From NCBI RefSeq assembly GCF_963921235.1, contig NC_086097.1, positions 139,564,001 to 139,628,000 on the forward strand: DNA of 64,000 nt. The letters run 5' to 3'. Below the pieces are notes generated by a model. The model did no database searches, was not told where the DNA came from, and was given only the letters and a program-made list of their open reading frames with translations. Position 1 is the stretch's first letter, and each line of letters opens with the position of its first letter. The stretch comes from Mobula hypostoma. Lineage: Eukaryota. Of this stretch, positions 8,814 to 60,210 are shown in pieces. The translations under genes were made by a program, and so were the position numbers.

Positions 8814-8920
8814 CATGACTGTTTTTTTGATCCTATGTGAAGGGCCGGGGTACTCTGATGAATACAAATCTGTCAGAAACAAAGAGTTGATGAGCGTCGA
8901 CTTTCCTAATCCTGATTCAC
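8814..8920 (-). CDS. SEPTIN7: Septin 7, exon 4 ([36 protein letters not shown]), GTPase G1/P-loop
   Basis: 107 nt with acceptor tatgttgcag| and donor |gtatgt. The phase-1 start fits exon 3. It carries the [10 protein letters not shown]-loop and the SEPT7-type [12 protein letters not shown]. Confidence 0.97.
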
Positions 8921-10369
8921 CTGCAACATAAAGTTAAGAAAAAGTTCAGTGTCAGGCAACACATTCTACAACTTACATGCATTCCTAAATGTTGTTAAGA
9001 GTCTTCACCCTCTTGCACTTCCGACATGAAAAACATTGTTTGCCGCAGTGAGATTATTCAAGACCTGTTAAAGCGATGTGAACAAATAAATTACCAGAAT
9101 TTCACTGTGCATCCAAAACCAGCAATTTAAACTAATCAATAACCAAACTACTCTCAGAGTTTTCAAATTAATTATACAAGTTCTGTCAAACAGCGCAGTG
9201 AAGGCCATCAACCTGAAACATTGATGGTTTTCCCCTTCACTGATACCAGATGATTTGGCGTGCATTTCTGGGAAAAATGAGGAAGGTACAGGATATGTGT
9301 ATTCCAAAAGTGAAGAAATACTCAAATGGCAAAATAGTACAACCGTGGCTGACAAGGGAAGTCAAAACTAATGTAAAAACAAAAGAGAAGGCATACAACA
9401 AAGCAAAAATTAGTGGGAGTATAGAGGATTGGGAAGTTTTTAAAACCAACAGAGAGCAACTAAAATAATTATTAGAAGGGAAAACATGAAATATGAAAGC
9501 AAGCGAAAATATCAAAGTGGATAGTAAAAACTTTTTCAAGTATGAAAAAAAACAAAAGACAGATGAGAGTGGATATAGGACCGCTAGAAAATGAGGCAGG
9601 AGAAATAACAACAGGAGACAAGGAGATGGCAGATGAACTAAATGATTATTTTCCATCAGTCTTCACTGTGGAAGACACTAGCAGTGTGCCAGATGTTGTA
9701 GTGTGTGAAGGAAGAGAAGTGAGTGCAGTTACTATTACAAGGGAGAAGGTGCTCAAAAAAGCTGAAAGACCTAAAAGTACATAAGTCACCCGGACCAGAT
9801 GAACTGCACCCTAGGATTCTGAAAGAGGTAATGTTAGAGATTGTGGCGGCATTAGAAATCTTTCAAAAATCATTAGACTCTGGCATGGTGCCAGAAGACT
9901 GGAAAACTGCAAATGTCACTCCACTCTTTAAGAAAAGGAGGAAAGCAGCAGAAAGGAAATTATAGACCAGTTAACCTGACCTCAGTGGTTGGGAAGATGT
10001 TAGAGTCAATTGTCAAGAATGAGGTGACACTGGACAAGATAGGACAAAGTCAGCAAGGTTTCCTTCAAAATCCTGCCTGACAAATCTTTTGGAATTCTTT
10101 GAGGAGATTACAGTAGAATAGATAAACAGGATGCAGTGGATGTTGTATACCTGGACTTTCAGAAGGCCTTTGACAAGGTGCCACACAAGGCTGCATACCA
10201 AGTTAAGAACCCATGGTATTACAGGAAAGTTACGAAGCTGGTTAGAGTATTGGCTGATTAGAAGAACGCAGCAAGTGGAAATAAAAGGATCTCTTGTCTG
10301 GTTGGCTGCCAGTGACTAGTGGTGATCCACATGGGTCGGTGTTGGGACCACTTCTTTTCATGCTGTATC

Positions 10370-13300
10370 TCGAGGAAAAGGAGCCACTAGGAGGTAGTGA
10401 CCATAATATGAAAAGTTTTTGAGAGGGAGAAGGGAAAATCGGAAGTGTCATTATTATAGTTGAACAAAGGGGACTATGGACCCTTGAGGGAGCAGCTGGC
10501 CAAAGTTGACTGGAAAGATACCCGAGCAGGGATGATAGTGGAACAACAATGGCAGGTATTTCTGGGAATAATACAGAAGGTACAGGATCAGTTCATTCCA
10601 AAGAGGAAAAAAGATTCTAAGGGAAGTAAGGGGCGACCGTGGATGACAAGGGAAGTCAAGGACAGTATAAAAATAAAAGAGAGGAAGTATAACATAGCAA
10701 GGATGAGCGGGAAGCCAGAAGATTGGGAGACTTTTAAGGAGCAACAGAAGATAACTAAAAAGGCAATACGGGGGGGGGGGGGGGGATGAGGTACGAAGGT
10801 AAGTTAGCCAAGAATATAAAGGAGGATAGTAAAAGCTTCTTTAGGTATGTGAAGAGGAAAAAATTAGTTAAGACCAAAGTTGGGCCCTTGAAGAAAGAAA
10901 CGGGTGAAATTATTATGGGGAACAAGGAAATGGCAGACAAGCTGAACAGGTACTTTGGATCTGTCTTCACTAGGGAAGACACAAACAATCTCCCAGATGT
11001 AATAGTGGCCAGAGGACCTAGGGTAACGGAGGAACTGAAGGAAATTCGTATTAGGCAGAAAATGGAGTTGGGTAAACGGATGGGACTGAAGGCTGATAAA
11101 TCCCCAGGGCCTGATGGTCTGCATCCCAGTGTACTTAAGGAGGTGGCTCTAGAAATCGTGGACATATTGGTAATCATTTTCCAATGTTCTATAGATTCAT
11201 GATCGGTTCCTGCGGATTGGAGGGTAGCTAATGTTATCCCACTTTTTAAGAAAGGAGGGAGAGAGAAAACAGGCAATTATAGACCAGTTAGTCTGACATC
11301 AGTGGTGGGGAAGATGCTGGAGTCAATTATAAAAGATGAAATAGCAGCATTTTTGGCTAGCAGTAGCAGGATAGGTCCGAGTCAGCATGGATTTATGAAG
11401 GGGAAATCATGCTTGACTAATCTTCTGGAATTTTTTGAGGATGTAATTATAAAAATGGACATGGGAAAGCCAGTGTACTGGACTTTCAGAAAGCCTTTGA
11501 TAAGGTCCCACATAGGAGGTTAGGGGGCAAAATTAGAGCACATGGTATTGGAGGCAGAGTACTGACATGGATTGAAAATTGGCTGGCAGACAGGAAACAA
11601 AGAGTAGGGATAAATGGGTCCTTTTCAGAATGGCAGGCAGTGACTAGTGGGGTACCGCAAGGCTTGGTGCTGGGACCGCAGCTATTTACAATATACATTA
11701 ATATCCAGAAATAGTAAGGGACAGAGGGTCCAGTGAGATGGAGGAACTGAGTGAAATACATGTTAGTAGGGAAGTGGTGTTAGGTAAATTGAAGGGATTG
11801 AAGGCAGATAAATCCCCAGGGCCAGATGGTCTGCATCCTAGAGTGCTTAAGGAAGTAGCCCAAGAAATACTGGATGCATTAGTGATAATTTTTCAAAACT
11901 CGTTAGATTCTGGACTAGTTCCTGAGGATTGGAGGGTGGCTAATGTAACCCCAATTTTTAAAAAAGGAGGGAGAGAGAAACCGGGGAATTATAGACCGGT
12001 TAGCCTAACGTCGGTGGTGGGGAAACGGCTGGAGTCAGTTATCAAGGATGTGATAACAGCACATTTGGAAAGCGGTGAAATCATCGGACAAATTCAGCAT
12101 GGATTTGTGAAAGGAAAATCATGTCTGACGAATCTCATAGAATTTTTTGAGGATGTAACTAGTAGAGTGGATAGGGGAGAACCAGTGGATGTGGTATATT
12201 TGGATTTTCAAAAGGCTTTTGACAAGGTCCCACACAGGAGATTAGTGTGCAAACTTAAAGCACACGGTATTGGGGGTAAGGTATTGGTGTGGGTGGAGAA
12301 TTGGTTAGCAGACAGGAAGCAAAGAGTGGGAATAAACGGGACCTTTTCAGAATGGCAGGCAGTGACTAGTGGGGTACCGCAAGGCTCAGTGCTGGGACCC
12401 CAGTTGTTTACAATATATATTAATGACTTGGATGAGGGAATTAAATGCAGCATCTCCAAGTTTGCGGATGACACGAAGCTGGGTGGCAGTGTTAGCAGTG
12501 AGGAGGATGCTAAGAGGATGCAGAGTGACTTGGATAGGTTGGGTGAGTGGGCAAACTCATGGCAGATGCAATTTAATGTGGATAAATGTGAAGTTATCCA
12601 CTTTGGTGGCAAAAATAGGAAAACAGATTATTATCTGAATGGTGGCCGATTAGGAAAAGGGGAGGTGCAACGAGACCTGGGTGTCATTATACACCAGTCA
12701 TTGAAAGTGGGCATGCAGGTACAGCAGGCGGTGAAAAAGGCGAATGGTATGCTGGCATTTATAGCGAGAGGATTCGAGTACAGGAGCAGGGAGGTACTAC
12801 TGCAGTTGTACAAGGCCTTGGTGAGACCACACCTGGAGTATTGTGTGCAGTTTTGGTCCCCTAATCTGAGGAAAGACATCTTTGCCATAGAGGGAGTACA
12901 AAGAAGGTTCACCAGATTGATTCCTGGGATGGCAGACTTCCATATGAAGAATGACTGGATGAACTGGGCTTGTACTCGTTGGAATTTAGAAGATTGAGGG
13001 GGGATCTGATTGAAACGTATAAGATCCTAAAGGGATTGGACAGGCTAGATGCAGGAAGATTGTTCCCGATGTTGGGGAAGTCCAGAACGAGGGGTCACAG
13101 TTTGAGGATAGAGGGGAGGCCATTTAGGACCGAGATTAGGAAAAACTTCTTCACACAGAGAGTGGTGAATCTGTGGAATTCTCTGCCACAGGAAACTGTT
13201 GAGGCCAGTTCATTGGCTATGTTTAAGAGGGAGTTAGATATGGCCCTTGTGGCTACAGGGGTCAGGGGGTATGGAGGGAAGACTGGGGCGGGGTTCTGAG

Positions 13301-14295
13301 TTGGATGATCAGCCATGGTCATAATAAATGGCGGTGCAGGCTCGAATGGCCTACTCCTGCACCTATTTTCTATGTTTCTATTAATGATTTAGATGAAGGA
13401 ATTAAAAGTAACATTAGCAAATTTGCAGATGACACAAAGCTCGGTGGCAGTGTGAAATGTGAGGAGGATGTTATGAGAATGCAAGGTGACTTGGACAGGT
13501 TAGGTGAGTGGGCAGATGCAGTTTAATGTGGATAAATATGAGGTTATCCACTTTGGTGGCAAGAACAGGAAGGCAGATTACTATCTGAATGGTGTCAGGG
13601 TGTCCTTGTTCATCAGTCACTGAAAGTAAGCATACAGGTACAGCAGGCAGTAAAGAAAGCTAATGGCATGTTGGCCTTCATAACAAGGGGAGTTGCGTAT
13701 AGGAGAAAAGAGGTCCTTCTGCAGTTGTACAAGGCCCTGGTGAGACCTCACCTGGAGTACTGTGTGCAGTTTTGGTCTCCAAATTTGAGGAAGGACATTC
13801 TTGCTATGGAGGGAGTGCAGCGTAGGTTCACAAGGTTAATTCCCGGGATGGCGGGACTGTCATATGTTGAAAGATTGGAGCGACTGGGCTTGTATACACT
13901 GGAATTTAGAAGGATGAAAGGGGATCTGATTGAAACATATAAGATTAAGGGATTGGACATGCTAGAGACAGGAAACATGTTCCAGATGTTGGGGGAGTCC
14001 AGAACCTGAGGCCACAGCTTAAGAATAAGGGGTAGACCATTTAGAACTGAGTTGAGGAAAAACTTTTTCACCCAGAGAGTTGTGGATCTGTGGAATGCTC
14101 TGCCTCAGAAGCCAGTGGCGGCCAATTCTCTGGATTCTTTCAAGAAAGAGTTAGATAGAGCTCTTAAAGATAGCAGAGTCAAGGGCTATGGGGAGAGGCA
14201 GGAACAGGGTACTGATTGTGGATGATCAGCCATGATCACAGTGAATGGCTGTGCTGGCTCGAAGGGCCGAATGGCCTACTTTTGCACCTATTGTC
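10370..14295 (+). mobile_element. CR1 LINE B (middle), split at 11702/13380
   Basis: Starts at the endonuclease end (EPLGGSDHN). ORFs 10460-11523 are CR1 ORF2. It breaks at tacattaat, resumes at attaatgatttagat and ends at the tail cctattgtctat. Confidence 0.88.
11703..13379 (+). mobile_element. CR1 LINE C (inner, youngest), 5'-truncated
   Basis: 419-aa ORF 11738-12997 has NYRPVSLTS, YLDFQKAFDKV, GVPQGSVLGP and KFADDTK. One frameshift leads to ORF 12970-13299. The tail is ttttctatgtttct, and attaat is duplicated on both sides. Confidence 0.95.
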
Positions 14296-46540: not shown

Positions 46541-47117
46541 GAAGTTCTCTTTAATCATGTCTCTTTTCAGGATCATAATATCCAGTTTAATGGAATTATT
46601 TCCTTTCTTTTAGCAGAGTCATCACAAATATCTAACACCGTCTATCACTAGGAATGATCCAACTTGAACCGTTTATACTCCTGGAGTTCAACGGTTTTGC
46701 TGATCTGAAAAGTACATTTGTTTGATTACTATCTTGCTTCAAATAGAATGGGGTTCCAATGACTCAGTTGTCAATAAATTTTCACCTTTAGCCACAAGGT
46801 ACATCTCCTGTAGGCACTATTCAAGTGACAGGATAAATTTATCTCTTCATAGAGGTTTCAAAAAGGAATCTATCCTCAGTCAACAACCAAACATGGATAA
46901 CCGACTTACTTCCTTTAATTCACAGGGATGTGAGCAGAACACTCTTAGCTAAAATTCATTTGTTGGGGAAATAAGCCTGAGATATTCAAGTATATGATTC
47001 AGGATTACATACTGCATATACTCCTCAACCTTTCCACCAGTTTCTCTTCAACAAGGTCTCTAATAACAAAATGACAATTAAATGATTTCCATTTTCAATA
47101 TATTTTAAATTACTTAC

Positions 47118-47220
47118 CCACAACCATCAATGTGAATTCAAATCCTCTCTTCACAGACTTTCTGTACACTTGATTAGGTAGGTTTGCAAACCCCACATAT
47201 CCTTCAAGATTCTTTTGTTG
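47118..47220 (-). CDS. SEPTIN7: Septin 7, exon 3 ([34 protein letters not shown]+G)
   Basis: 103 nt with acceptor ttatgttatag| and donor |gtaagt. The translation matches the SEPT7 polybasic region leading into the P-loop. Confidence 0.97.
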
Positions 47221-47412
47221 CTATAACATAATTTAAAAAATTAGTTTCTACAGCAGAAACAATTAATATAACACTGACATCAAAACAAACTCAGGAGTAG
47301 AGAGCCAAAACTTAAAATGACAATTCACATACAACACGCTGTGTCAAGAAAGCCAGACAACTTCGCATCGAGTATAGTTGGAAAAAAGAAAGGTCAGGTT
47401 TCAAATACTTAC

Positions 47413-47414
47413 CG
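47413..47414 (-). CDS. SEPTIN7: Septin 7, candidate 2-nt microexon (exon 2, CG)
   Basis: Minus strand reads tttacaacag|CG|gtaagtat. It joins exon 1 (phase 1) to exon 3 (phase 0) as ATG G|CG|CAA CAA = M-A-Q-Q. There is no AG for ~133 nt upstream, and a CCTAAC branch motif plus pyrimidine tract sits at 47528-47549. Confidence 0.75.
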
Positions 47415-47549
47415 CTGTTGTAAACCCATAGGTCCAGAGTCCAGAGATGGTCATGAAACATCCATGTGGCACAGCAAGGATTGGAAATAAGATGCAGTAT
47501 AATAACCAGCATCATCACCAACAGCATGAAACAAAAAGAAAATGTTAGG
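47415..47549 (-). promoter_or_regulatory. Distant branch point, polypyrimidine tract and AG-exclusion zone upstream of the microexon
   Basis: Minus strand CCTAAC (47544-47549) is followed by attttctttttgtttc. There is no AG between 47550 and the acceptor AG at 47415-47416. Confidence 0.65.
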
Positions 47550-47609
47550 CTTCAAATATAACTACTGTACATCACTTACTCTATATTTAAACATATCAAA
47601 ATCACTCAT

Positions 47610-48155
47610 ACATTTCAAATGTCTGGAAGTTATGTTGGAACTTTATAAAACTCTAGTTAAGCCCCACCTGGAGTACTGCATACAGTTCTAGTCACCCCAT
47701 TATAGAAAAGGTGTTGAGGCTTTGGAGACAGTGCAGAAGATTCACCAGGATGCTGACTGGATCAGAGGGGGTTTACTCTGGAGCGTCAGAGGCTGAGGGG
47801 GGAGATCTGATAGAGCTTTATAAGATTATGAAATGCATAGATAGAGCAGACAGACAGTATATTTTTCCCCAAGGTTGAAATATCTAATACCAGAGGGCAT
47901 TCATTTAAGGTGAGAGGAAGTAATTTCAAAGGAGATGGGAGGAGCAAGTCCCTCCCCACCCCCACAGAATGGTGGGTGCCTTGAATGCACTGCCTGGGGT
48001 GGTGGTAGAGGCAGATACATTAGGGGCTTTTAAGAGACATTTAGATAGGCACATGAATGTAAGGAAAATGGAGAGATATGAAGAGATTAGTTGATCACTT
48101 GATTACTAATTTAATTGATTCAAAGCGCCTGTTTCTGTGCTGTACTGTTCTATGT
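47610..48155 (+). mobile_element. CR1 LINE 3' fragment
   Basis: LELYKTLVKPHLEYCIQF and TRGHSFKVRG motifs, plus the tail ctgtactgttctatgtt. Confidence 0.85.
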
Positions 48156-48534
48156 TTCAAAACGACAGTAATTTATATAAATTTTAAAATGAATTCTCTT
48201 ACTCCTCATAATAATTCACAACACAATCCAGTTCAAATTAATGAAAGTCAGTCCTACCCCTCATCTGCAATACAGCAAGATTTAACAAAAAGAGTAACCT
48301 GAATTTTCATTCTAGAAGGGACCTTTTAGCTCTGGATTTGGATGAAATCATTCACCGGAACAGCTGTACATGACTGGCATTTTGCAGACTACCTGCTCAT
48401 AACTTCTTAATCTTACACTTCCCTAACATTCCACCTTGAATTTCTTGAGCTAATATGTTAGTCATTCTATTCTGGAATGAACCTGGAACCACAACAGCAA
48501 GAAAAGGTTTTAGCCAACACTATGGACCTTTAAG

Positions 48535-48797
48535 CCGGCTGGTGGCGCAGTGACATCAGCGCCGGACTCCGGAGCGAAGGTTCCCGAGTTAGAATCCAGT
48601 CGGGCCGCTCCCAGGCATGCTTTCCATCTGTGCCAGGTTGAGTGTCGAGCTCGCAACATGGCTTCATAAAAAAAAAATCTGCGCTGTGAAAAGTACGTGG
48701 GGGACCACTCACAAATCTTTCCTCCAAGACAACCACTTGAAAAAGTGGTCGCCAAGGCTCTGGTACTCTGGTAGAGTATGGCACACCAAAAAAAAAA
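48535..48797 (+). mobile_element. Young tRNA-derived SINE with A-tail and 11-bp TSD
   Basis: A-box tggcgcagtga, B-box gagttagaatcc, CpG-rich head and A10 tail. TSD ggacctttaag at 48524-48534 and 48798-48808. Confidence 0.85.
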
Positions 48798-48919
48798 GGA
48801 CCTTTAAGGACCAATGTCACACTGGTTCTTTTTAAAATCACCATTTGTTAAGTGCATATACAATGTTAATGTGCATATTTGCTCCATTAGATCCAAGATG
48901 AAGAGCTCCAAAAGTATTA

Positions 48920-49640
48920 AGAATGTAAGAAATAAGAATAGGAGTCAGCCATTCTCTAACTCAAGACCACCATACACTACAATCAAAGTTGAATCAATTT
49001 TCTGTACTCCCCTATAAACAGAAAACTGGAAGTCACAAGCAAAATGCAAGCAGTAGGCCATTCAACATTCAAGCCTACTGTCCTATGCAATACAATTCTG
49101 TTTCATCATCCAAACTTAGATCCTACTTTTGCCTTATAATCCTTGACCACTTTTGCCACAAAATGCAACTTCAACTGCCCTCTGTGGTTGAGATTAAGAT
49201 TTTCGCTCTCCAGTGAATTTCTCATACTACTTAGTTTACTTGGTAGACCGTACTTGGTTTACCCCTTGTCCTTGGGCTATGATGGCCCCTAATGGATCGT
49301 TATCAGAAGTTGCATAGTAAGTTCCAGTATCTAATCGGCCCGGTCTTGTTAGAATTTTGTAGGTTTCTATGAGATCCCCTCGCAGTGTTCTAAACTCCAG
49401 TAAATCAAGCCTAAATGATTCACTTTTTCTTCATACAACTGTGCTACCACCCCAAGGACCGGTCTAGTTAAATTTTGCTGCACTTCCCCAACAGCAAGAG
49501 CATCCTTCCTCTTGGAGACCACAACAAATTTTCACAGTATGACCTCACCAAAGTATTGTACAGTTGCAGTAAGGCAGGCCTAATCCCGTAGCCCCTTCTC
49601 TCACCATGAAGGCCAACATATCATTTAGCTTCTGAACTGC
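48920..49640 (-). mobile_element. Old CR1 3' fragment
   Basis: Reverse strand gives LEFRTLRGDLIETYKIL-like (ggtttctatgagatcccctcgcagtgttctaaactccag) and MLAFM-like segments. Confidence 0.65.
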
Positions 49641-50959
49641 CAGTTTCACCTCCACATGCCACACCATACTTTCTACTTTGTCCAATGGACCACATGGTCA
49701 CCTTCCTTCAAGTGCCATAAACTCCCACTAGTCGCAATATTGACTAAAACTAGTATTCCACACAGCCAGATAATAGTAAGGATAAAACGCCTAAGGAATT
49801 TTTAAAACTCAAACAGAAGTTCCTTAAAAAGAAAGGAAAAGCTCCCCATTCTGAATCACTGCCAATTAGCTAGTTAGCTTCGTGTATACAAATCAAATCC
49901 CACATTGTGAAGCAAATTTCTTCCACTCAGAAGTTTTCTATAATTTGTTACCATACTGCTAACTTTGGCTGACATTTTTATGGACAAAAGGACCTTAGAA
50001 CTGAAGAAATCACCTCATCTGCCAGTTGTTTTTCTCCAATAGGCTAAAATCACTAACATCTAACTGCAACATTCATCTTCTACTATTACAAATATTAATA
50101 CAGATTACCTGAAAAATCTGAATAATTAAGATGCAATACAAGCTGCTGGAAATTTTGACAAATGAATTGAGTCAGAAAGTTGAAGACTAATGAAATAAAT
50201 ATAAAAAATGAACCAAACTGATCCAATCAATTATTTCCCTTGGTCTATTCAATTTCCTTAAAATACAAAATTTCATAAATTTCAATTCAAGGTTACTTAA
50301 GGTAGGAGAAAGGCAGATGAATATTTGAAGATGTTTTTGAGGCTACATGTTCCAATTAGAAGCTAAATTTTCCATCAATGTAAGCTTTTCATTTGTTCAA
50401 ATGTATTTATAATATATACATTGAAACATGGAGAAATGCATCATCTGCATTAACTAGCACACCCGAGGATGTGCTGGGCCAGATCAGAAGAGTGGCCACA
50501 CATTACGGCACCAACATTGCATTTATTGACAAGGTTTAGCAAAAATTAGATGATTCAACCAAAATCTTGTTTGAACTACAGAAGCTGAAAGCTTACAGCA
50601 GGGAAAGGCAACAATAAATCGTTGTTAGCACTAGAACAAACTTGAATCTAATGTATATGACGACAAACTTCCACAATTCACAAATTCGATATGCTTCTTT
50701 AACTCTTCAGTTTATTGCTGGTTCATGATTTTGATGGGCCACATGGATTAAACACAGGAAAAGAAACTGGTACTGTCCATGTGTTAATTGTGACTTTGAA
50801 TGGGCAACGTGTCTCCCAAAAATTACTAAGCTTCTGACTCCAAGCTCATCCTCCTCGCAACCCAGCCATAACATTTCTGTTTTGCCCATCATTCAGTGCA
50901 CTTTCCATTTGATTGGGAGCAGACACTTATCCAAAAGCCAAGGTTTAAGAATCAACAGT

Positions 50960-52190
50960 TATTAATCAGAATCAGGTTTATAATCAGTCTTATTATGACG
51001 TGAAATTTGCTGTTTTGCAGCAGCATAATGCAAAAGGATTAACATGATAGTGCTCACATGTTCATGAACAGCTCAAAAATCTATTGACAGGGATGAAGCT
51101 GTTTTTGAATCCGAGTGTGGGTTTTCAGGCTCTTGTAGCTTCTACCAGATGGTAGTTCCGTGAAGAGGGGATTTCCTGGATGGTGAGAGTGCTGAGTGGA
51201 TATCACCTTCTTGAGTCACTAACTTTTGAAGATATCCTTGAAAGGTGGGTGGGGGGGGGCAGGGATAAGGATTGTACCCATGATGGAACTCAGCCTACAA
51301 TTTCTGCAGCTTCTTACGATCCTCTGCATTGGAGGATCCATGTGATGCAACCATTCAGAATGTTCTCAAGCATACATATATACAAATTTGCAAGTGTCTT
51401 TGCCAACACACCAAATCTCTTAAAACTCAAGCTGCTGATGTGTCTTCTTCATGATTGCATCAATGTGCTGGGCCCAGAACAAATCCTCCAAGATGCTGAC
51501 ACCCAGAAACTTAAGGCCATTCATCCTTTCCACCACTGACCCCTCAATGAGGATAGGTACATGTTCTTCCAAATTTCTCTTCCTTAAGTCCACAGTCAAT
51601 TCCTCGGTATTGCTGTTACTGAGTGCTTGAAGTTGGATTTTTGCAACACCACTCAACCAGCCAATCTATCTCACTGCTGTATGTACATCACATTGCCATC
51701 TGAGAATACCAACAACAGTAGCATTATCTGCAAATTTATTGATGGTGTTTGAGCTGTGCTTAGCCACACAATGAGTGTACAGAGGGCAGATTAAGCACAC
51801 ATCATTGAGCCATGTCTGTGTTGAAAGTCAGGAAGATTTTAATCACCAATCAGTACTGACTTGTCCCCTGTGAAGAAGTCGAGGTCTTGGTGCAGACGAA
51901 GGTAGTGACCCAGGTTTAGAAGCTTAGTGGTTAATACTGAGGGAATGATGGTATTGGACACCAAGCTACAATCAATAAACAGCAGCCTAACAAGCATAGC
52001 TTGTTGCATAGGTGCTCCAAAGCAGAGTGGACAGCCAGTGAGCTTGCATCCACTATAGATCTGTTGTGGTGGTTGGTGAATTATAGAGGGTCTGAGTCCA
52101 AGGCCTTGCTGAGGAAGGAGTTAATTCATAGCCATAACCATAACCAACTTCTCAAAACACTTAATGGTAGTTGTGAGTGCTACCAGTAGA
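50960..52190 (-). mobile_element. Rex1/Babar LINE fragment
   Basis: ORF 51420-51656 contains TEELTVDLRK...FLGVSILEDLFWAQHIDAIMKK. Confidence 0.8.
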
Positions 52191-55100
52191 TAATCACTGA
52201 AGCACACACATCATGAATTGAGACAATGGACAAGTAGCCAGATTCCTGACACCTGCCCACTGAGAACTATCCTTGCAACTGGTAATCCTGAGTTAAGATT
52301 AGAGCATAAGCGTTCCCTCAAAAACTCTAGCACAAATGATCAAAGTACTGGTACACAAAAGCTCGACACAATTCGGGCCTCAATTATTTCCAAGAGACTA
52401 CTTCTGTAAAAAGTGATCAGGTTTCCCACTCTGCCTCGAACATTCCTGAGTAAACAACCCAGGTTTGTCCAACTTCTTGTTAAAGGTCATACCCTCCAAT
52501 CCAGGCAACATCCTGGTGAAGCTTCTCTGATGCCTCGACATCCTGCCTGAGATGTTTTTCTTTTTGCTGTCTCAATGGACTGGATGGCATGCAAACAAAA
52601 GCTTTTCATTGCATCTCAATACATACAACAATAATAGACAAATACCAATAATACATGAAAGTATTGCTGAAATGCATAACCAAGGGCAAAACTGTGCCCA
52701 AAACATGCCAGGCTTCCTTTTGTTTCTACTTCGTTATTACAAACACGTAGTAAATTACAAAAGCTTGAACTTGAGAACTCCTTTGAAAATGTAAGAGAAT
52801 TTGTGTGACATTGGATTGTCAAAGTCAGGTGTTCTAGTGAACCACCATATTAGTTACAGAAAAGTGGGGCAGCAGGTAGTGCCGCTGCAGTCTCAGAGCT
52901 CAAGTAACCTAGGTTCAAACCCAACCTGTTTTTCTGTCTCTGACAACTTAAGATATTCATCGTGTCCTCCAATTACTTCCCATATCCTAAAGCTTCACTG
53001 GTTGGTAGACAATAAATGTCGGTTAGAAGTACAATATAATATAGGCAGATGGAAGTACAATCAGGGTTAAGTTGATGGGTATGAAGGGGAACAGACATAG
53101 GGAAATAATTATGAATGCCAGTGTAGATCTAATGGGTCAAATTGCCACTTATGTAAGGAACAACAAGAATCATAGGTAATGTGATATGATTGCTTTTGCT
53201 GAATTTTATCTATTTAAATCTGGACTGTATTTTTCTGTAGAAAATAATTTCTCAATTATAATTAGGCTTCTTTTAGTTTTGCCATTAGACAAACTAAATT
53301 AATACACACTGCAAGTCCAACTACTCTGTTGGGATATATGAAACCATTAATTAAAATCATAACCCCATTAAGAAATTATTTAACTGAAAGCCAAGTCCTC
53401 TGCAATCATCCTTGCACAAAGTGATCTGCCAAATGTATGGCCAGAGAAATTTTGTTTTTGTAGTCAGAGAAAACAATGCCAAACCATACACAGAAGGACA
53501 TTTACAATGCTTAAGGATTCTTTAGTACATAAAGTTTAAATGTAACCAAAAGAAAATCCACCTGAAATCCTACACTGCTTGAATTAATTTACTACTCAAT
53601 CAACCTAACTGCCAACTTAAACATTTATAATCTGTCTTAAAACTAAAAGTGACATTCTCTTTCACTAGCCAGCTGAACATAACCCAATTTCCAGAATAAA
53701 GATTAAAAAAAACAGAATGTAATCTACCGAACAACGGCACATTGAGGATAAGGGAAAGCTTAAGTCATCACTTAAACTGGCAATGATAGACATGACCTGA
53801 AAGTTTTTTTGCAAGACCACAAGTGAAGCATCACAAGAACTGTTTATTCAAGGCAGATCTACTAAAGGATACCATTTCAACATTCTGCAAGGACTAACTG
53901 CAGAAGTTTTCCCACCCTGTACAACTCAGAACCTCTCAGAATCCCAGGAACACTCTGCACTTCAATTTTGTCAGCTACCAGAATGAACATTCATTAGTAT
54001 TGTTACCAAGTGCCACAAAATAGAATGCAAGACAACAGGCCCAGTATAATCTACGTCTTCAACCCCCACAAGATTTTTACTGTGTGAATGTCAAGGAAAT
54101 AACCAGCCTGAAGAAGAGATGGCGAATAGTCAGGGACTAAGATCAAGAAAGGAAAGGAGAAATGAAACCAGCAAAAGGGAGGTTGAAGGGGATTGTGAGG
54201 CGGCCAAAAAGAAACAAGGGGGGAGAGAGAAAGGAGAATAGTAGGGTAGAGAAGAAAGTTTTGAGAGTACAGGGAGGGATTCTGGGCCAAATTAAGCAAA
54301 AACTGTTACCCAGGGAATATTAATAAAACCATTGGTGCATTTGAGTAAATCCAGAGAAGTAGTAAAAGGAACAGATGAAATGCTGCCAAAGTTAAATGAA
54401 GGATAAAGACTTATATGGAACATTAATGTTGGCATGGACTGGCTTCTTTTTAAACGTGCAAATGTTATTTTTTAGTTCATAGAATATTTAGAGTATAGGA
54501 GATAATTTAGCCCATGCAGGTCTCTAATTCCATCCTTCAGCATTTTCTCCATAACCTGCAGATCTTTCTTACTATTTATTCAATTTCTTCTTGAAGACTA
54601 TATTAGAGCCTTTCTCCACCATGCCTGCAGGTAGCAAGTTCCAGTTTTCAATAATTTTCTTCCAAAATGTTTCTTCGTGTCACTATGAATTGTCTTCCCT
54701 TTATTTTGTGTCTATTTTGCTATTCTCACAAAACCCAGCCTGATTATTCAGATGATATTATTACTATAATTCTAATATTTGAGAGGTCAGTCTAAAATTT
54801 GAGACTTATTATAACCACTCAAACAACTTAAGTAGGGCTTTATATCTAAATGAATACAACTCTGATCATCCTAACCAACATTTACCAACCACTAATTCTC
54901 TTGCTCCCAAACCGAATAAAATTATACCCAGGATTTCATCTATTGAAATTTTTGCCATTGAAGACACAAAAATGCTCTTTAACTACTTATTTTGCATCTT
55001 ATGCTTCCTTAAGTTTTGCCTTAAATTTCATTGCATCCTGATGGATTTCTCGTAATGAGCAAACAAACTAAAGCTTCACACCATTAAGCAATATAATAGA

Positions 55101-57942
55101 ATTTAACCAGATGGAATGGTAGAACTTTGTATCCTCATTTCAAAAATGGCTCATGCTACCAACCCAACAGAATCTACATGTGCACGGTAACCCGAGAAAC
55201 ACTGGCATGGAGAACAGAAGCATTCAACAAACTGGCACAAGTTCCACTTAACATAGCAATAATGTACAAGTATGTTATAAAATTAAAGCTGGCATTTTAA
55301 TGGGGGCATTTTGCTTAAGAACAACAGGTAGAAAGTTTCAGGAAAAAAATCCGAAAGCTCAACCTTAACATCTGAAGGGAAATTGCTTATTTTTTTTTAG
55401 AAAGTCCAAAACAAAAACTTGATCAACAAACTTATGGCTGATTGAATCACTGTGTCTCTAAAATCCAAAGGCAACAAGTCCAACAAAAAATGTCCAGTTA
55501 TTCAAACCTAACTGTAGTAGTTCAATAAAGTTACCAATCACATTTGATTTCCCCACTTTTATAAGGAAGCTCTTACACAGATCAGATTGGACAGGGGTTC
55601 AAATATAGACCATCTCACAACTAACCTTTTAGCTATATTGACAACTTGCAAGGAGAAAACTTTCAACATAATGCCCCAATTCTAATGTAGTATCTCAATA
55701 ATAAGACCAGTTAATGAGTATTTCCTTCTAGTGCCATATATCTAGTTATAGTGGTACTATGGTCAGTACACCTCTAAGGTTTAATAAATCTTCATTCTAT
55801 TTTCACTGTCTTCAATTATACAATATACTCTTAACTTTAATCATCACTGATAGACCAAACGTAAAATTCAAACTCACATTGGCTAAATAACAAGACCTCA
55901 ACTCTGCCAAGAATTCAAATATTGCACTCTACCTAAGATTGCCAAGGCTGCTGTTTTAGGTAGTGGATCTTGAAGAATTTAGTTCCAATCTGAAACATGC
56001 CACCAACGAGAGAGAGAGCCTCCAAGCGAGAAAGAGAAACCAGATTTTAAGAGCACAAACAAAAATGCTGGTTTACAAACAAACTGCCTATTCCCACATC
56101 TATTGCTAGTGCAAAAATGCCAAAAGGAAAGGTGCTGCAGCTGGTCTGCCAGACATCACAGTTTAATTTCTACAGCTGTACAAGCTTCATACAACTGCAC
56201 GACTACACAAATTGAACATGCCACTACTGCAGGGAGCATTTTGCTATATAAACTGATCCATTGTCTAGCTTAAAGACAAAGAAATATGTTGAATATTTTG
56301 ATGAGGCCCAAGACTGTTTATTTTGTAAAACCTACATCTTGTATCTGGCACAACTATATACCCTTTCAGGTACCGGAACGTATAGGAAATAAAATGCCGC
56401 AACCCAATTAATTCCTTTTAAAACTGAATCTAACTACTCTCCTTGTAAATAGCTACATTCAACCATAACATCTGCATTGATGAGTTGATAGCTTGTTATA
56501 ACTATGAAACTAAAGCATATTACATTGTAAGAAATTGACATAATAATCAAAACTATAACCTACTAGGTACAAGAAAAAAACATAAGGCAAACTAGGAATT
56601 TGGTTTTGCTGAGCCAGAGACTGCAGATGCTAGAATCCAGAGAAACAAACAATCTGCTAGAGGAACGCAGTAATGATTGAAACCATAAGGTTGAGCAACA
56701 TCTGTGGGCAAGGAGAAATCATCGACATTTTGGACTGAACCCTACAACAGGATGGGTCATAACCCTATTTTAAAAATTTAATTAAAATATTTTAGTACAG
56801 TTAATACTAAAATTGGAATCTCTGAATCTGGAACTGTAGATGCTGAAAAAAAATCAGTTAATGAGTACGTATTTTACACTTGAATGATCATTGTTTAGCA
56901 TTAGGATGGCCCTATTGAACAATACAGTTTAAAATATGAAATAAGAGAGTCATCTGCATTGACTTCAACATGAGATGGCATATGAAAAAGTAAATCTTTT
57001 AAAGAAATCAGTAACTGTAGCAGAATGGCTCAAGATTTGTTTTACAGATAGATAAACTGAAGGAAGTCATGTGGTTTGCTATGTCTCAAATGCTTAGCAG
57101 GTCTCATAACTGCAGCTCTCCACTGCATTCACATTTAACATTCTTTCACAGCATACAGAGTTTAAACATTTTCAAAGAATCAATGTGGACTAAAATAATG
57201 CAATATTTGAAAATCTGATCAAGCAATACTTAAAAATCACGATAGCTAATAATCAATAAACCAAATCCTTCATAGGCTGCACAACTACCACAGGAGGCCT
57301 TTCATGACGACAAGTTGATTAGAATTCAATAAGCATATGGGCTAACATACACACACACACACACAAAAAGAGGTTGTATAAAATCTTTACAAATCAAACA
57401 TTAGGTCTCCTCGCCAATGCTCTTTGCAGTTCATGGTGGATATTTCAGGAAGGATGTCAAAGTCTTAAATTTGCAGAGGATTTGCCGAATGGATGCAAGA
57501 TATATTAAAATTCATTTATATGGAAAAATAGAGACATTGGCAAAAAACTTAAGATATATAGATAGGTTAGATGGGCGAGCCAATCTGACAAATAGAACAC
57601 AACATAATACTGTCCACTGTAACAGGAAAAACATAAAGGTTATTCACTGCAGAGTTGAGAGATATGGAAGGATTTGGGTAACCCAATTCATGATTCACAA
57701 TGATAAAGTAAAACAAGTATCAGGGAAGCTAACACAACTTCTCATTAACTTTTGAAGTAAATTGAATAGAAACGCAGGGAAGTTGCACTTAAGTTGTAAA
57801 CAGTACTGGGGTGCAAACATTCTAGAGTATCATATGCAGTATTTTAAAGGGAGGATGTTAATGCACTGGAAGTGGTGAGAGGTTCACTGCAATAGTATAA
57901 AAAACAAACTGCTGGAAGAACTTAACAGGTCAAGCAACAACA

Positions 57943-58212
57943 GGGTGGTACAGCAGCATAGTGGTTAGCACAATGCTTTACCGTACAGGCGATCAGGGTT
58001 CAATCCCTGATGCTGCCTGTAAAGAGTTTGTACATTCTTCCCATGAACTCGGTTTCCTCTGGCTTCCTCCCACAGTCCAAAGACATACTGGTTGGAAGGT
58101 TAACTCGTCATTGTAAATTGCCCTGTGATTAGGCTAGGGTTAAATTAGTGGGTTGCTGTGTGGTGTGGCTCAAAGGGCCGGAAGGGTCTACTCCACACTT
58201 TATCTCAATAAA
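57943..58212 (+). mobile_element. V-SINE (HE1-like), near full length, nested in Penelope and old LINE debris
   Basis: tRNA head (agcatagtggttagc, gggttcaatccc), V-domain ggtttcctctggcttcctcccacagtccaaagac, and tail tatctcaataaat. Confidence 0.85.
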
Positions 58213-59075
58213 TCTGCCGGGGGTGGTAGTGCTAGTGGTTCGGGATCTGACAACATTTCACGCCACAGCCCTGCATTGACTGGACTGATATCCAGAATGA
58301 GCAGGTAGTCTTGTGATGATAGGTTGCACAGGCTCGGCCTCTATCTGCAGGAGTTTAAAAGATCATGAGCTACCTTGGAAAAAAATACAAAATCTGGAAT
58401 GCTCTGGGCAGGCTGGATGTGGAGCTGATTCTTGTGAAAAGAACTGAGGTCACTGTTTAAAATCTGGTCACCTATTTAAGTCAGAGACAAATCAAAAATT
58501 CTCCATTTGTGAGATGCATAAGATTCTTGCTCTAAGGGTGGTAAAACCAGAGACTATAAGACTTTCAAAAGTCAATAGTAGAAACATTATTGGTAAGGGG
58601 TTGAAATGTTAACTAAAGGGAGACAGGGATGCAGAGTGGAGATTACTGTCTGATGAGACTACTACTTCCTTCTTCTCATTTGAATGTTTGCAGCAGTATT
58701 GCTAGAGAAGGCCAAGGTAAATTGGGGCATTCAAAACTAAAAGAATTTGTGAAATGTTAAGGAAAGCGGAAACCATTTCTATTGACAAGGTGGTTGAGAT
58801 AATGAGAATCACCAAGAACAGAGATTTATGAATATACTTAGTCTGAGAAACGGCATAAAATGTACTTTTAATAAGAACTTTACAGAAAAAAATTGGATTA
58901 CTATTGGACAAAAAAATCACCAGATTATGGGAAAGCACAGGGCAATTGGAGAATTCTGCAAAGATTCCAATGGCCTCCTATATTGGAAGATACCACAATC
59001 TAAAATGTTAAGCTATCAAATTTACCACCACTCCATCCCCCAGTAAAAATTACAAACATAAGAACAGCAAATCAT

Positions 59076-59139
59076 AAACACAAGAAATTCTGCAGATGCT
59101 GGAAATTCAAAGCAACACACCCAAAATACTGGAGGAATT
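59076..59139 (-). mobile_element. Penelope-like terminal tail fragment with ~16-bp TSD
   Basis: cataagaacagcaaat (59057) and cataagaacaacaaat (59140) flank aaacacaagaaattctgcagatgctgg... Confidence 0.75.
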
Positions 59140-59897
59140 CATAAGAACAACAAATTCATTACATAGTTTCACTAACAAAGAAATCATAAAAAAATCAACA
59201 TACAGACTTCGTAATCAGATAAAAATAGGCATGTCACTCACTAGCAACTAATTCATTCATAAAATGTAAAGGGTTAGAGACAGAGAAAACTTCGCGGAAC
59301 GGACTTTGGGCTGATTTAAAAGAAGGACCTTTTCCTATCTTAAGTCTACACTTCGAAAACCGGTTACAAGTTGGGAATCAGAATGAAACTGTTCTTGTTT
59401 TTACGAGACCGCTTCCACGTTAAACAGGAAAGGAGGGAGGTATGGGTCTTCCCGGTGCGGAACTCACTAAGCTGGTCTCACTCTGAGAGTCAACTCAAGC
59501 GCAACGGACCGAGTGGCCCCTTCCTGAAGCCGCAGCCACACATCATGCAGCCTGTAAGGAATAGACGGCTGGGTGGGTCCCGCATTGCCGCCTTCACCCG
59601 GGGTACAGCATTCCGACCCAGCCACGGCCCTGGCGCAGAGCCATTCCACCCCGCCGCCCGCTCTGACCTCAGCGGTTAGGACCGTGAAGAGTGTGGGGAG
59701 ATACCCAGGCCCGAGGGCGCACCGGACTACGCAGGGCCCGGCCCCTCCCAGAGCCGCTACTCTCCGGCTCGCCGACAACAGTAGTAGCCGCCCGCTATCC
59801 AGCCCCGTTTCCCCCCCGGCGTCTGAAGCCACACTTAGCGCCCGGCTGAGCTCGGAGCACCCCCTGGACGCGACGGTCGTCCACCGGCAGTACTCAC

Positions 59898-59934
59898 CCA
59901 TGCTGGCAGCCGCAGATCTGTCACAGCCCGACAT
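59898..59934 (-). CDS. SEPTIN7: Septin 7, coding exon 1 (MSGCDRSAAASM + G, ends in phase 1)
   Basis: ATG at 59934 lies in a CpG island. The 37 nt are followed by the donor G|gtgagt (plus actcac, 59892-59897). The peptide resembles the vertebrate SEPT7 N-terminus as I recall it (MS...RSAAA...M). Confidence 0.88.
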
Positions 59935-59950
59935 TGTGCTCTACATCACC

Positions 59951-60021
59951 GCCCGCCAACAGAACTCGCGACAGGTCCGACGCCAAACGAGAGTTCAGCG
60001 ATGAAACTCGCTCTCGCGGTG
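59951..60021. promoter_or_regulatory. E2F-like site and two BANP-like (TCTCGCGAGA-type) motifs
   Basis: gcccgccaa at 59951-59959, actcgcgaca at 59964-59973 and tctcgcggtg at 60012-60021. All are imperfect matches inside the CpG island. Confidence 0.4.
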
Positions 60022-60033
60022 TTAGCGCGTACA

Positions 60034-60055
60034 GGGCATTCTGGGTACTGTAGTT
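60034..60055 (-). promoter_or_regulatory. ZNF143/STAF (SBS) site with ACTACA extension
   Basis: Minus strand AACTACAGTACCCAGAATGCCC matches the ACTACA-n-CCCA-nn-ATGC housekeeping promoter motif, 100 bp upstream of the ATG. Confidence 0.75.
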
Positions 60056-60080
60056 ATTGTGGTCAATGCTGAACAACGTT

Positions 60081-60210
60081 TTTGATGAAGGGTCTCGGCC
60101 CGAAACGTCGACTATTTACTCTTTTCCATAGATTCTGCCTGGCCTGCTGAATTCCTCCAGCAGTTTGTTTGCGTTGCTTTGGATGTGCAGCATCTGCAGG
60201 TTTTCTCGTA
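60081..60210 (+). mobile_element. Penelope-like terminal repeat inserted in the SEPTIN7 promoter region; partial hammerhead motif at 60082-60113
   Basis: ttgatgaagggtctcggcccgaaacgtcgact...cagcatctgcaggttttctcgt. Confidence 0.8.

Follow-up and report, generated by a model that had tools for sequence, protein, structure and literature searches.

The window, which is the whole 64,000-nt stretch of Mobula hypostoma DNA that was analysed, contains on its minus strand a SEPTIN7 coding exon with a length of two nucleotides. This microexon, CG at 47414-47413, is real and is spliced into the transcript. With a probability of about 0.88, we read the site as SEPTIN7 exon 2, a 2-nt coding microexon flanked by two introns, orthologous to the human 2-bp exon 2 and included in the main, probably constitutive, form of the mRNA.

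The host gene is an intact SEPTIN7, with collinear exons along G000:C1 that have 70-96% identity to septin 7 queries, and it runs past the window to G000:C1:139496773. In particular, the residues of exon 3 are identical to those of the Septin-7 chains 2qag_C and 7m6j_C in the PDB (34/34), and three C-terminal exon matches have identities of 88, 90 and 96% to a Callorhinchus query versus 85, 88 and 88% to a teleost query, which points weakly to a cartilaginous fish. The transcript extends to at least 60100, as a contig of run X1 covers 59898-60100 with 0 differences. The interval from exon 1 to exon 3 is 12,677 nt in all, and its parts are listed in Table 1. Further downstream, intron 3 carries broken LINE-like reverse transcriptase frames on the plus strand (9200-14100; the family is named by resemblance), the longest of which has 431 aa (11702-12997).

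Table 1. Features of the SEPTIN7 locus in the window, with positions counted from the first letter of the stretch.
Feature	Positions	Strand	Description
SEPTIN7 exon 1	59898..60100	-	coding part 59934-59898, 37 nt, phase 1; donor gtgagt
SEPTIN7 intron 1	47415..59897	-	12,483 nt, with interspersed repeats
Candidate distant branch point	47524..47550	-	predicted; CCTAAC, A at 47545 (-131), followed by a 16/20 pyrimidine tract
AG-free zone	47417..47549	-	upstream of the microexon acceptor; 135-nt gap between AGs
SEPTIN7 exon 2	47413..47414	-	CG, 2-nt coding exon; with the last G of exon 1 gives an Ala codon
SEPTIN7 intron 2	47221..47412	-	192 nt; donor gtaagtat
SEPTIN7 exon 3	47118..47220	-	103 nt, phase 0, starts CAA; QQKNL...MVV, in-frame Met close to its end
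SEPTIN7 exon 4	8814..8920	-	107 nt, P-loop GKST exon

The original prediction stated that exon 1 ends in phase 1 while exon 3 starts in phase 0, and that the reading frame needs the microexon; the mismatch was confirmed, and the need holds for the product that joins these two exons. Exon 1 ends in ATG-G at 59898, which is 12 codons and one base from the in-frame ATG at 59934. Joined directly to exon 3, it meets a stop at codon 18, with 86 nt of exon 3 still to come; when CG lies between the two exons, the frame is open through exon 3. The CAG acceptor and consensus donor that had been placed two nucleotides apart are present on the minus strand as tttacaacag-CG-gtaagtat, 192 nt upstream of exon 3, and the acceptor does have a single AG, as was claimed. 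The nearest AG upstream is so far off that there is no tandem acceptor giving a 5-nt form at this locus, and only the 2-nt form is usable here. In human SEPTIN7, tandem acceptors reportedly lie behind the 5-nt form. The lack of that form here marks a different variant of the exon, not a lack of orthology.

The site is single-copy in the genome, and the pattern YAG-NN-GTAAGT occurs once in the interval, at 47414; by chance, with any NN, 0.087 instances are expected, and 8% of 300 Markov shuffles contain one. The motif alone is thus only moderately beyond chance, and the microexon is judged to be real because RNA contigs carry the CG. Contigs from four of the 22 listed runs (X1, X3, X11 and X14, with four organism codes and from four studies; the runs are presumed to be RNA) were compared with positions 46900-60100. 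The junction between exons 1 and 3, which the original prediction had named as the place to look, was recovered with two extra bases in all four runs, as one contig each, and the two bases read as CG in three of them (X1, X3 and X14). Each contig follows exon 1 as far as 59898 and, after a single unplaced letter, resumes at 47221 and runs through exon 3, with all four covering 47221-47116. The unplaced letter in X1, X3 and X14 is a plus-strand G, or C on the gene strand; because position 47221, the G of the acceptor, supplies the second base after this C, the insert is CG.

The depths of the junction contigs in X1, X3, X11 and X14 are 495.9, 1607.3, 16 and 297.5, respectively. At exon 3 position 47179, the junction contig makes up all of the depth in X1, X3 and X11; in X14, a second contig lies over exon 3 at a depth of about 28, for a total of 325.8 versus 297.5 for the junction contig. 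A direct join of exon 1 to exon 3 is absent from the joint matches listed for the four runs, all of them assembled contigs, which drop rare forms; the microexon may be strictly obligatory. The X1 contigs have 0 differences over the displayed exon and unique intron pieces, and X11 and X14 have one differing base in exon 3. Moreover, a genome search found no intronless SEPTIN7 copy able to yield such contigs from DNA.

Two other ways to rescue the frame were rejected. Phase-1 acceptors near exon 3 (-53, +19, +52 and +76) are used by none of the four junction contigs, and a moderate phase-0 donor at 59667 is unused, as exon 1 stops at 59898 in all four. Run X1 also has an intronic contig (47283-47542, depth 5.75, 0 differences) that extends across the microexon, its first base 3 nt downstream of the candidate branch A; it was not counted as evidence, because contigs cannot show RNA ends and because other intronic pieces are scattered along intron 1. 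The DNA runs X21 and X22 share 26% and 21% of the words in 46900-47700, a larger share than exon 3 could account for by itself, and were likewise not counted as evidence.

The microexon's donor matches U1 at 9 of 11 positions, contiguously from -1 to +8, and is the best U1 match of the 789 GT sites in the interval (a list without the exon 1 donor). Gaps between AGs as long as the one upstream of the acceptor are rare, accounting for 2 of 772 gaps within intron 1 and 6 of 3980 across the window. Of the 20 nt just before the microexon's AG, only 45% are pyrimidines. Eight branch point candidates tie at 6/7 on a crude consensus; the CCTAAC at -131 is followed by the best pyrimidine tract and sits at the far end of the AG-free zone. 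RNA structure around the microexon is nothing special (z = -0.13). An AAG acceptor at 47212, 9 nt into exon 3, would leave the frame intact and remove QQK; M-A-NLEG stands in a trout record (P0044), and two macaque records (P0181 and P0218) are without QQ, so that annotations differ at the exon 3 acceptor as well.

These data were weighed against other origins of the two bases. The CG could stem from some other intron 1 site or a non-canonical event, with 47414 being coincidental: the interval holds two AG-CG-GT sites, of which that at 59411 is preceded by a pyrimidine-rich stretch, and three AG-CG-GC sites, and two bases are not uniquely mappable, in keeping with a statement in the accessible text of the MicroExonator paper that exons of 1-2 nt cannot be mapped with high specificity (PMC7821500). 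Such a source is very improbable, however, as the donor at 59411 matches U1 at 3 of 11 positions, its acceptor is AAG rather than CAG, and the pattern YAG-CG-GTRAG has a chance expectation of 0.003, appearing in 1 of 300 Markov shuffles. The kinship with recursive AG/GT sites that the original prediction had suggested comes down to likeness only, since the two bases stay in the mRNA, as the contigs indicate, and the interval is only 12.7 kb, which is short for vertebrate recursive splicing, whose sites lie in very long introns. A true recursive (ratchet) point, at which intron 1 would come out first and the regenerated donor would be re-used, leaving the two bases as an offset left-over, is decidedly unlikely: although the removal of intron 1 would leave the donor context unchanged (position -3 is G both ways) and two-step splicing persists in MPC1 constructs whose exon has 0 bp, re-splicing close to a newly made junction is inhibited by the exon junction complex (both from the available portion of PMC9929638).

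A less remote, though still unlikely, reading is that of an alternative exon, where a regulated share of transcripts skips the microexon or uses another first exon; either would then yield a decay-bound mRNA or an N-terminally shortened septin 7 of about 392 aa from the Met of exon 3, and the exon would act as an expression switch. Among the 301 fetched proteins, 21 start at this internal Met, human SEPT7 microexons are called alternative in a passage of PMC9929638, and the upstream part of the minor X14 contig over exon 3 is not displayed. Nevertheless, the listed matches include no direct join of exon 1 to exon 3, the contig with the insert takes up the entire exon 3 depth in three of the four runs, and the short database proteins may themselves stem from a missed microexon.

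For a constitutive SEPTIN7 exon 2, the following mechanism is proposed. A 2-nt exon is too small for signals of its own, so the flanking introns would define it. U1 would bind the near-perfect donor, while U2 and U2AF would bind a branch point and pyrimidine tract far upstream, with -131 as the best candidate, and so avoid crowding with U1; the acceptor would be the first AG reached by scanning through the AG-free stretch. Intron 2 would probably be removed first by intron definition, as its short length suggests, creating a 105-nt composite exon that would then be spliced to exon 1. Any rare products of skipping would undergo nonsense-mediated decay, or translation would restart at the Met inside exon 3. 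Both the distant branch point and the order of splicing are predictions drawn from the sequence. In SRRM4-dependent microexons, inclusion tracks donor strength more than the length of the AG zone (10.1101/2024.09.17.613571, in its accessible part), and the AG-free zone is therefore given less weight here.

The genome has a second, complete-looking septin-7-like gene (G000:C55:1170316-1082106; L003, L006 and L007), with about 71-88% identity per exon. Its predicted first coding exon is 39 nt long and in phase 0, it lies 11,699 nt upstream of the phase-0 equivalent of exon 3, and its N-terminus resembles the fish records P0001 and P0245. By this predicted phase-0 direct join, the paralogue would do without a microexon, which points to a microexon specific to SEPTIN7. 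Further, at three paralogous loci (L002-L004), the pattern YAG-N(0-8)-GTRAG does not occur in the roughly 1.5 kb upstream of the corresponding exon. A zero-length CAG/GTAAGT in the first intron of the C55 paralogue (L006, G000:C55:1161198) was considered as a recursive site and put down to chance, because it lies in a high-copy repeat (5076 candidates) and its chance expectation is 0.06.

A wider evolutionary reading is put forward tentatively, as one that we consider possible and still rather doubtful. The microexon would be fully obligatory, a 2-nt coding exon that an essential gene would have retained ever since jawed vertebrates arose, and its definition would come entirely from outside, through a branch point some 130 nt upstream and an AG-free scanning zone. 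It would have arisen in SEPTIN7 alone, through the gain of an intron or the shift of a donor next to an ancestral phase-0 intron, an origin proposed because the phase-0 first exon of the C55 paralogue can be joined directly to the following exon; the 5-nt form of other lineages would either have been added later or have been lost here. If true, the locus would be a natural minimal model for exon definition versus recursive splicing.

The protein start of M-A-QQK that was originally put forward stood in part. The Ala codon is borne out by the CG in the contigs; the first Met probably is not, as the in-frame ATG at 59934 lies 11 codons further upstream. The N-terminus is therefore probably longer, and probably reads MSGCDRSAAASM-A-QQK, as in the longer N-termini of zebrafish and mammalian records. 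The start codons at 59934 and 59901 are in frame with each other, with the stronger Kozak context at 59901, and two N-terminal forms of the protein are possible. Exon 1 also has two upstream ATGs in the main frame of the minus strand, at 60039 and 59946, both covered by a contig of run X1 and both closed by stops; one opens an ORF of 5 codons and one is a bare ATG TAG just before the first main ATG. Control of SEPTIN7 translation by these upstream ORFs is possible.

Across 301 fetched proteins, a biased sample with fragments and other septins among them, the N-termini were M-A-QQK in 41, M-V-A-QQK in 23, M-G-QQK in 12 and M-other-QQK in 7; besides the proteins that start at the exon 3 Met, 108 have other leaders and 89 are without the motif. 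The M-A-QQK records come from teleosts and mammals, and the M-V-A-QQK records from mammals, a bird, a snake and cyprinids. That annotation pipelines would miss the microexon was borne out: all 12 M-G-QQK records are UniRef-only, and the junction of exon 1, microexon and exon 3 is absent from the Callorhinchus models (0/7). We infer that the M-G-QQK records arose where the reading ran two bases past exon 1 into its donor. For example, the NCBI records of guppy (P0165) and brown trout (P0069) have M-A-QQK, versus M-G-QQK in the UniRef-only records of the same species (P0177 and P0067, respectively). The protein searches behind these 301 records returned no named shark or ray SEPTIN7, and only Callorhinchus models.

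The 2-nt SEPTIN7 exon itself is already known, as it is the orthologue of a tabulated human exon and M-A-QQK proteins are on record. In a literature search that had most subscription papers outside it, the human exon was found as a table entry with a short remark, and no study of its conservation, splicing or mechanism was found. The locus adds RNA support in a distant lineage, the 2-nt form on its own, a testable layout with a distant branch point, a set of annotation errors, and a paralogue that would need no microexon. A species with the 2-nt form as its only possible and main product shows that splicing in a coding exon of 2 nt is routine for the spliceosome; moreover, the locus would allow distant branch points and the order of splicing to be tested cleanly in a minigene, and the missed microexon explains many wrong SEPTIN7 N-termini in databases.

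Among known systems, recursive sites share the near-abutting acceptor and donor in one interval and the two splicing steps; they have zero bases between AG and GT, in contrast to the two retained, frame-needed bases of SEPTIN7, and the microexon is not a member of this class. The neural microexons of SRRM3/4 have in common with it a tiny size, a weak tract beside the AG and a long branch-to-AG distance, which is a feature of neural microexons in the accessible text of PMC12871342 and a prediction here. Unlike the SEPTIN7 exon of 2 nt, they are mostly a multiple of three in length and have a UGC close upstream of the AG; the only UGC within 60 nt upstream of the SEPTIN7 AG is at -57, and a skipped SEPTIN7 form is not among the joint matches listed. 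The microexon is not of the SRRM4 class.

The human SEPT7 exon 2 agrees with the Mobula exon in gene, rank and length, and its product is M-A-QQK as well (macaque P0159 and mole rat P0248). The tiny human exon 2 that the original prediction mentioned is in print in both forms: exon 2 is tabulated at 2 bp as the shortest human exon (PMC5199132 and PMC6549324), and SEPT7 is also among the genes with 4- or 5-bp exons (PMC9929638), each according to the available portion of the source. The 2-bp exon is described in the same part of PMC9929638 as alternative and in the 5′ UTR, whereas it is coding here; the M-V-A-QQK records noted above fit a 5-nt form, in contrast to the 2 nt of this locus. An RNA-only C insertion reported in SEPT7 (103 of 146 reads; accessible part of PMC8632122) may be the same mapping effect as the unplaced C of the junction contigs.

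The MPC1 microexon is a constitutive exon of 4 bp, with branch points at -68/-64, that is still spliced when reduced to 2, 1 or 0 bp; it is also an exon 2 that follows an intron of about 12 kb, and together with the microexons of TNNI1, TMEM237, KSR1 and MUSK it resembles the SEPTIN7 exon in having a length that is not a multiple of three, a coding role, a strong donor and, by prediction for SEPTIN7, a tract set back from the AG (available text of PMC9929638). The SEPTIN7 exon differs from this type by being shorter, by a downstream intron of only 192 nt, and by a predicted branch point about twice as far away. In the accessible part of PMC7821500, constitutive microexons are described as having stronger splice sites. 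Overall, the SEPTIN7 microexon probably works like a constitutive microexon of the MPC1 type, and its use is probably constitutive as well.
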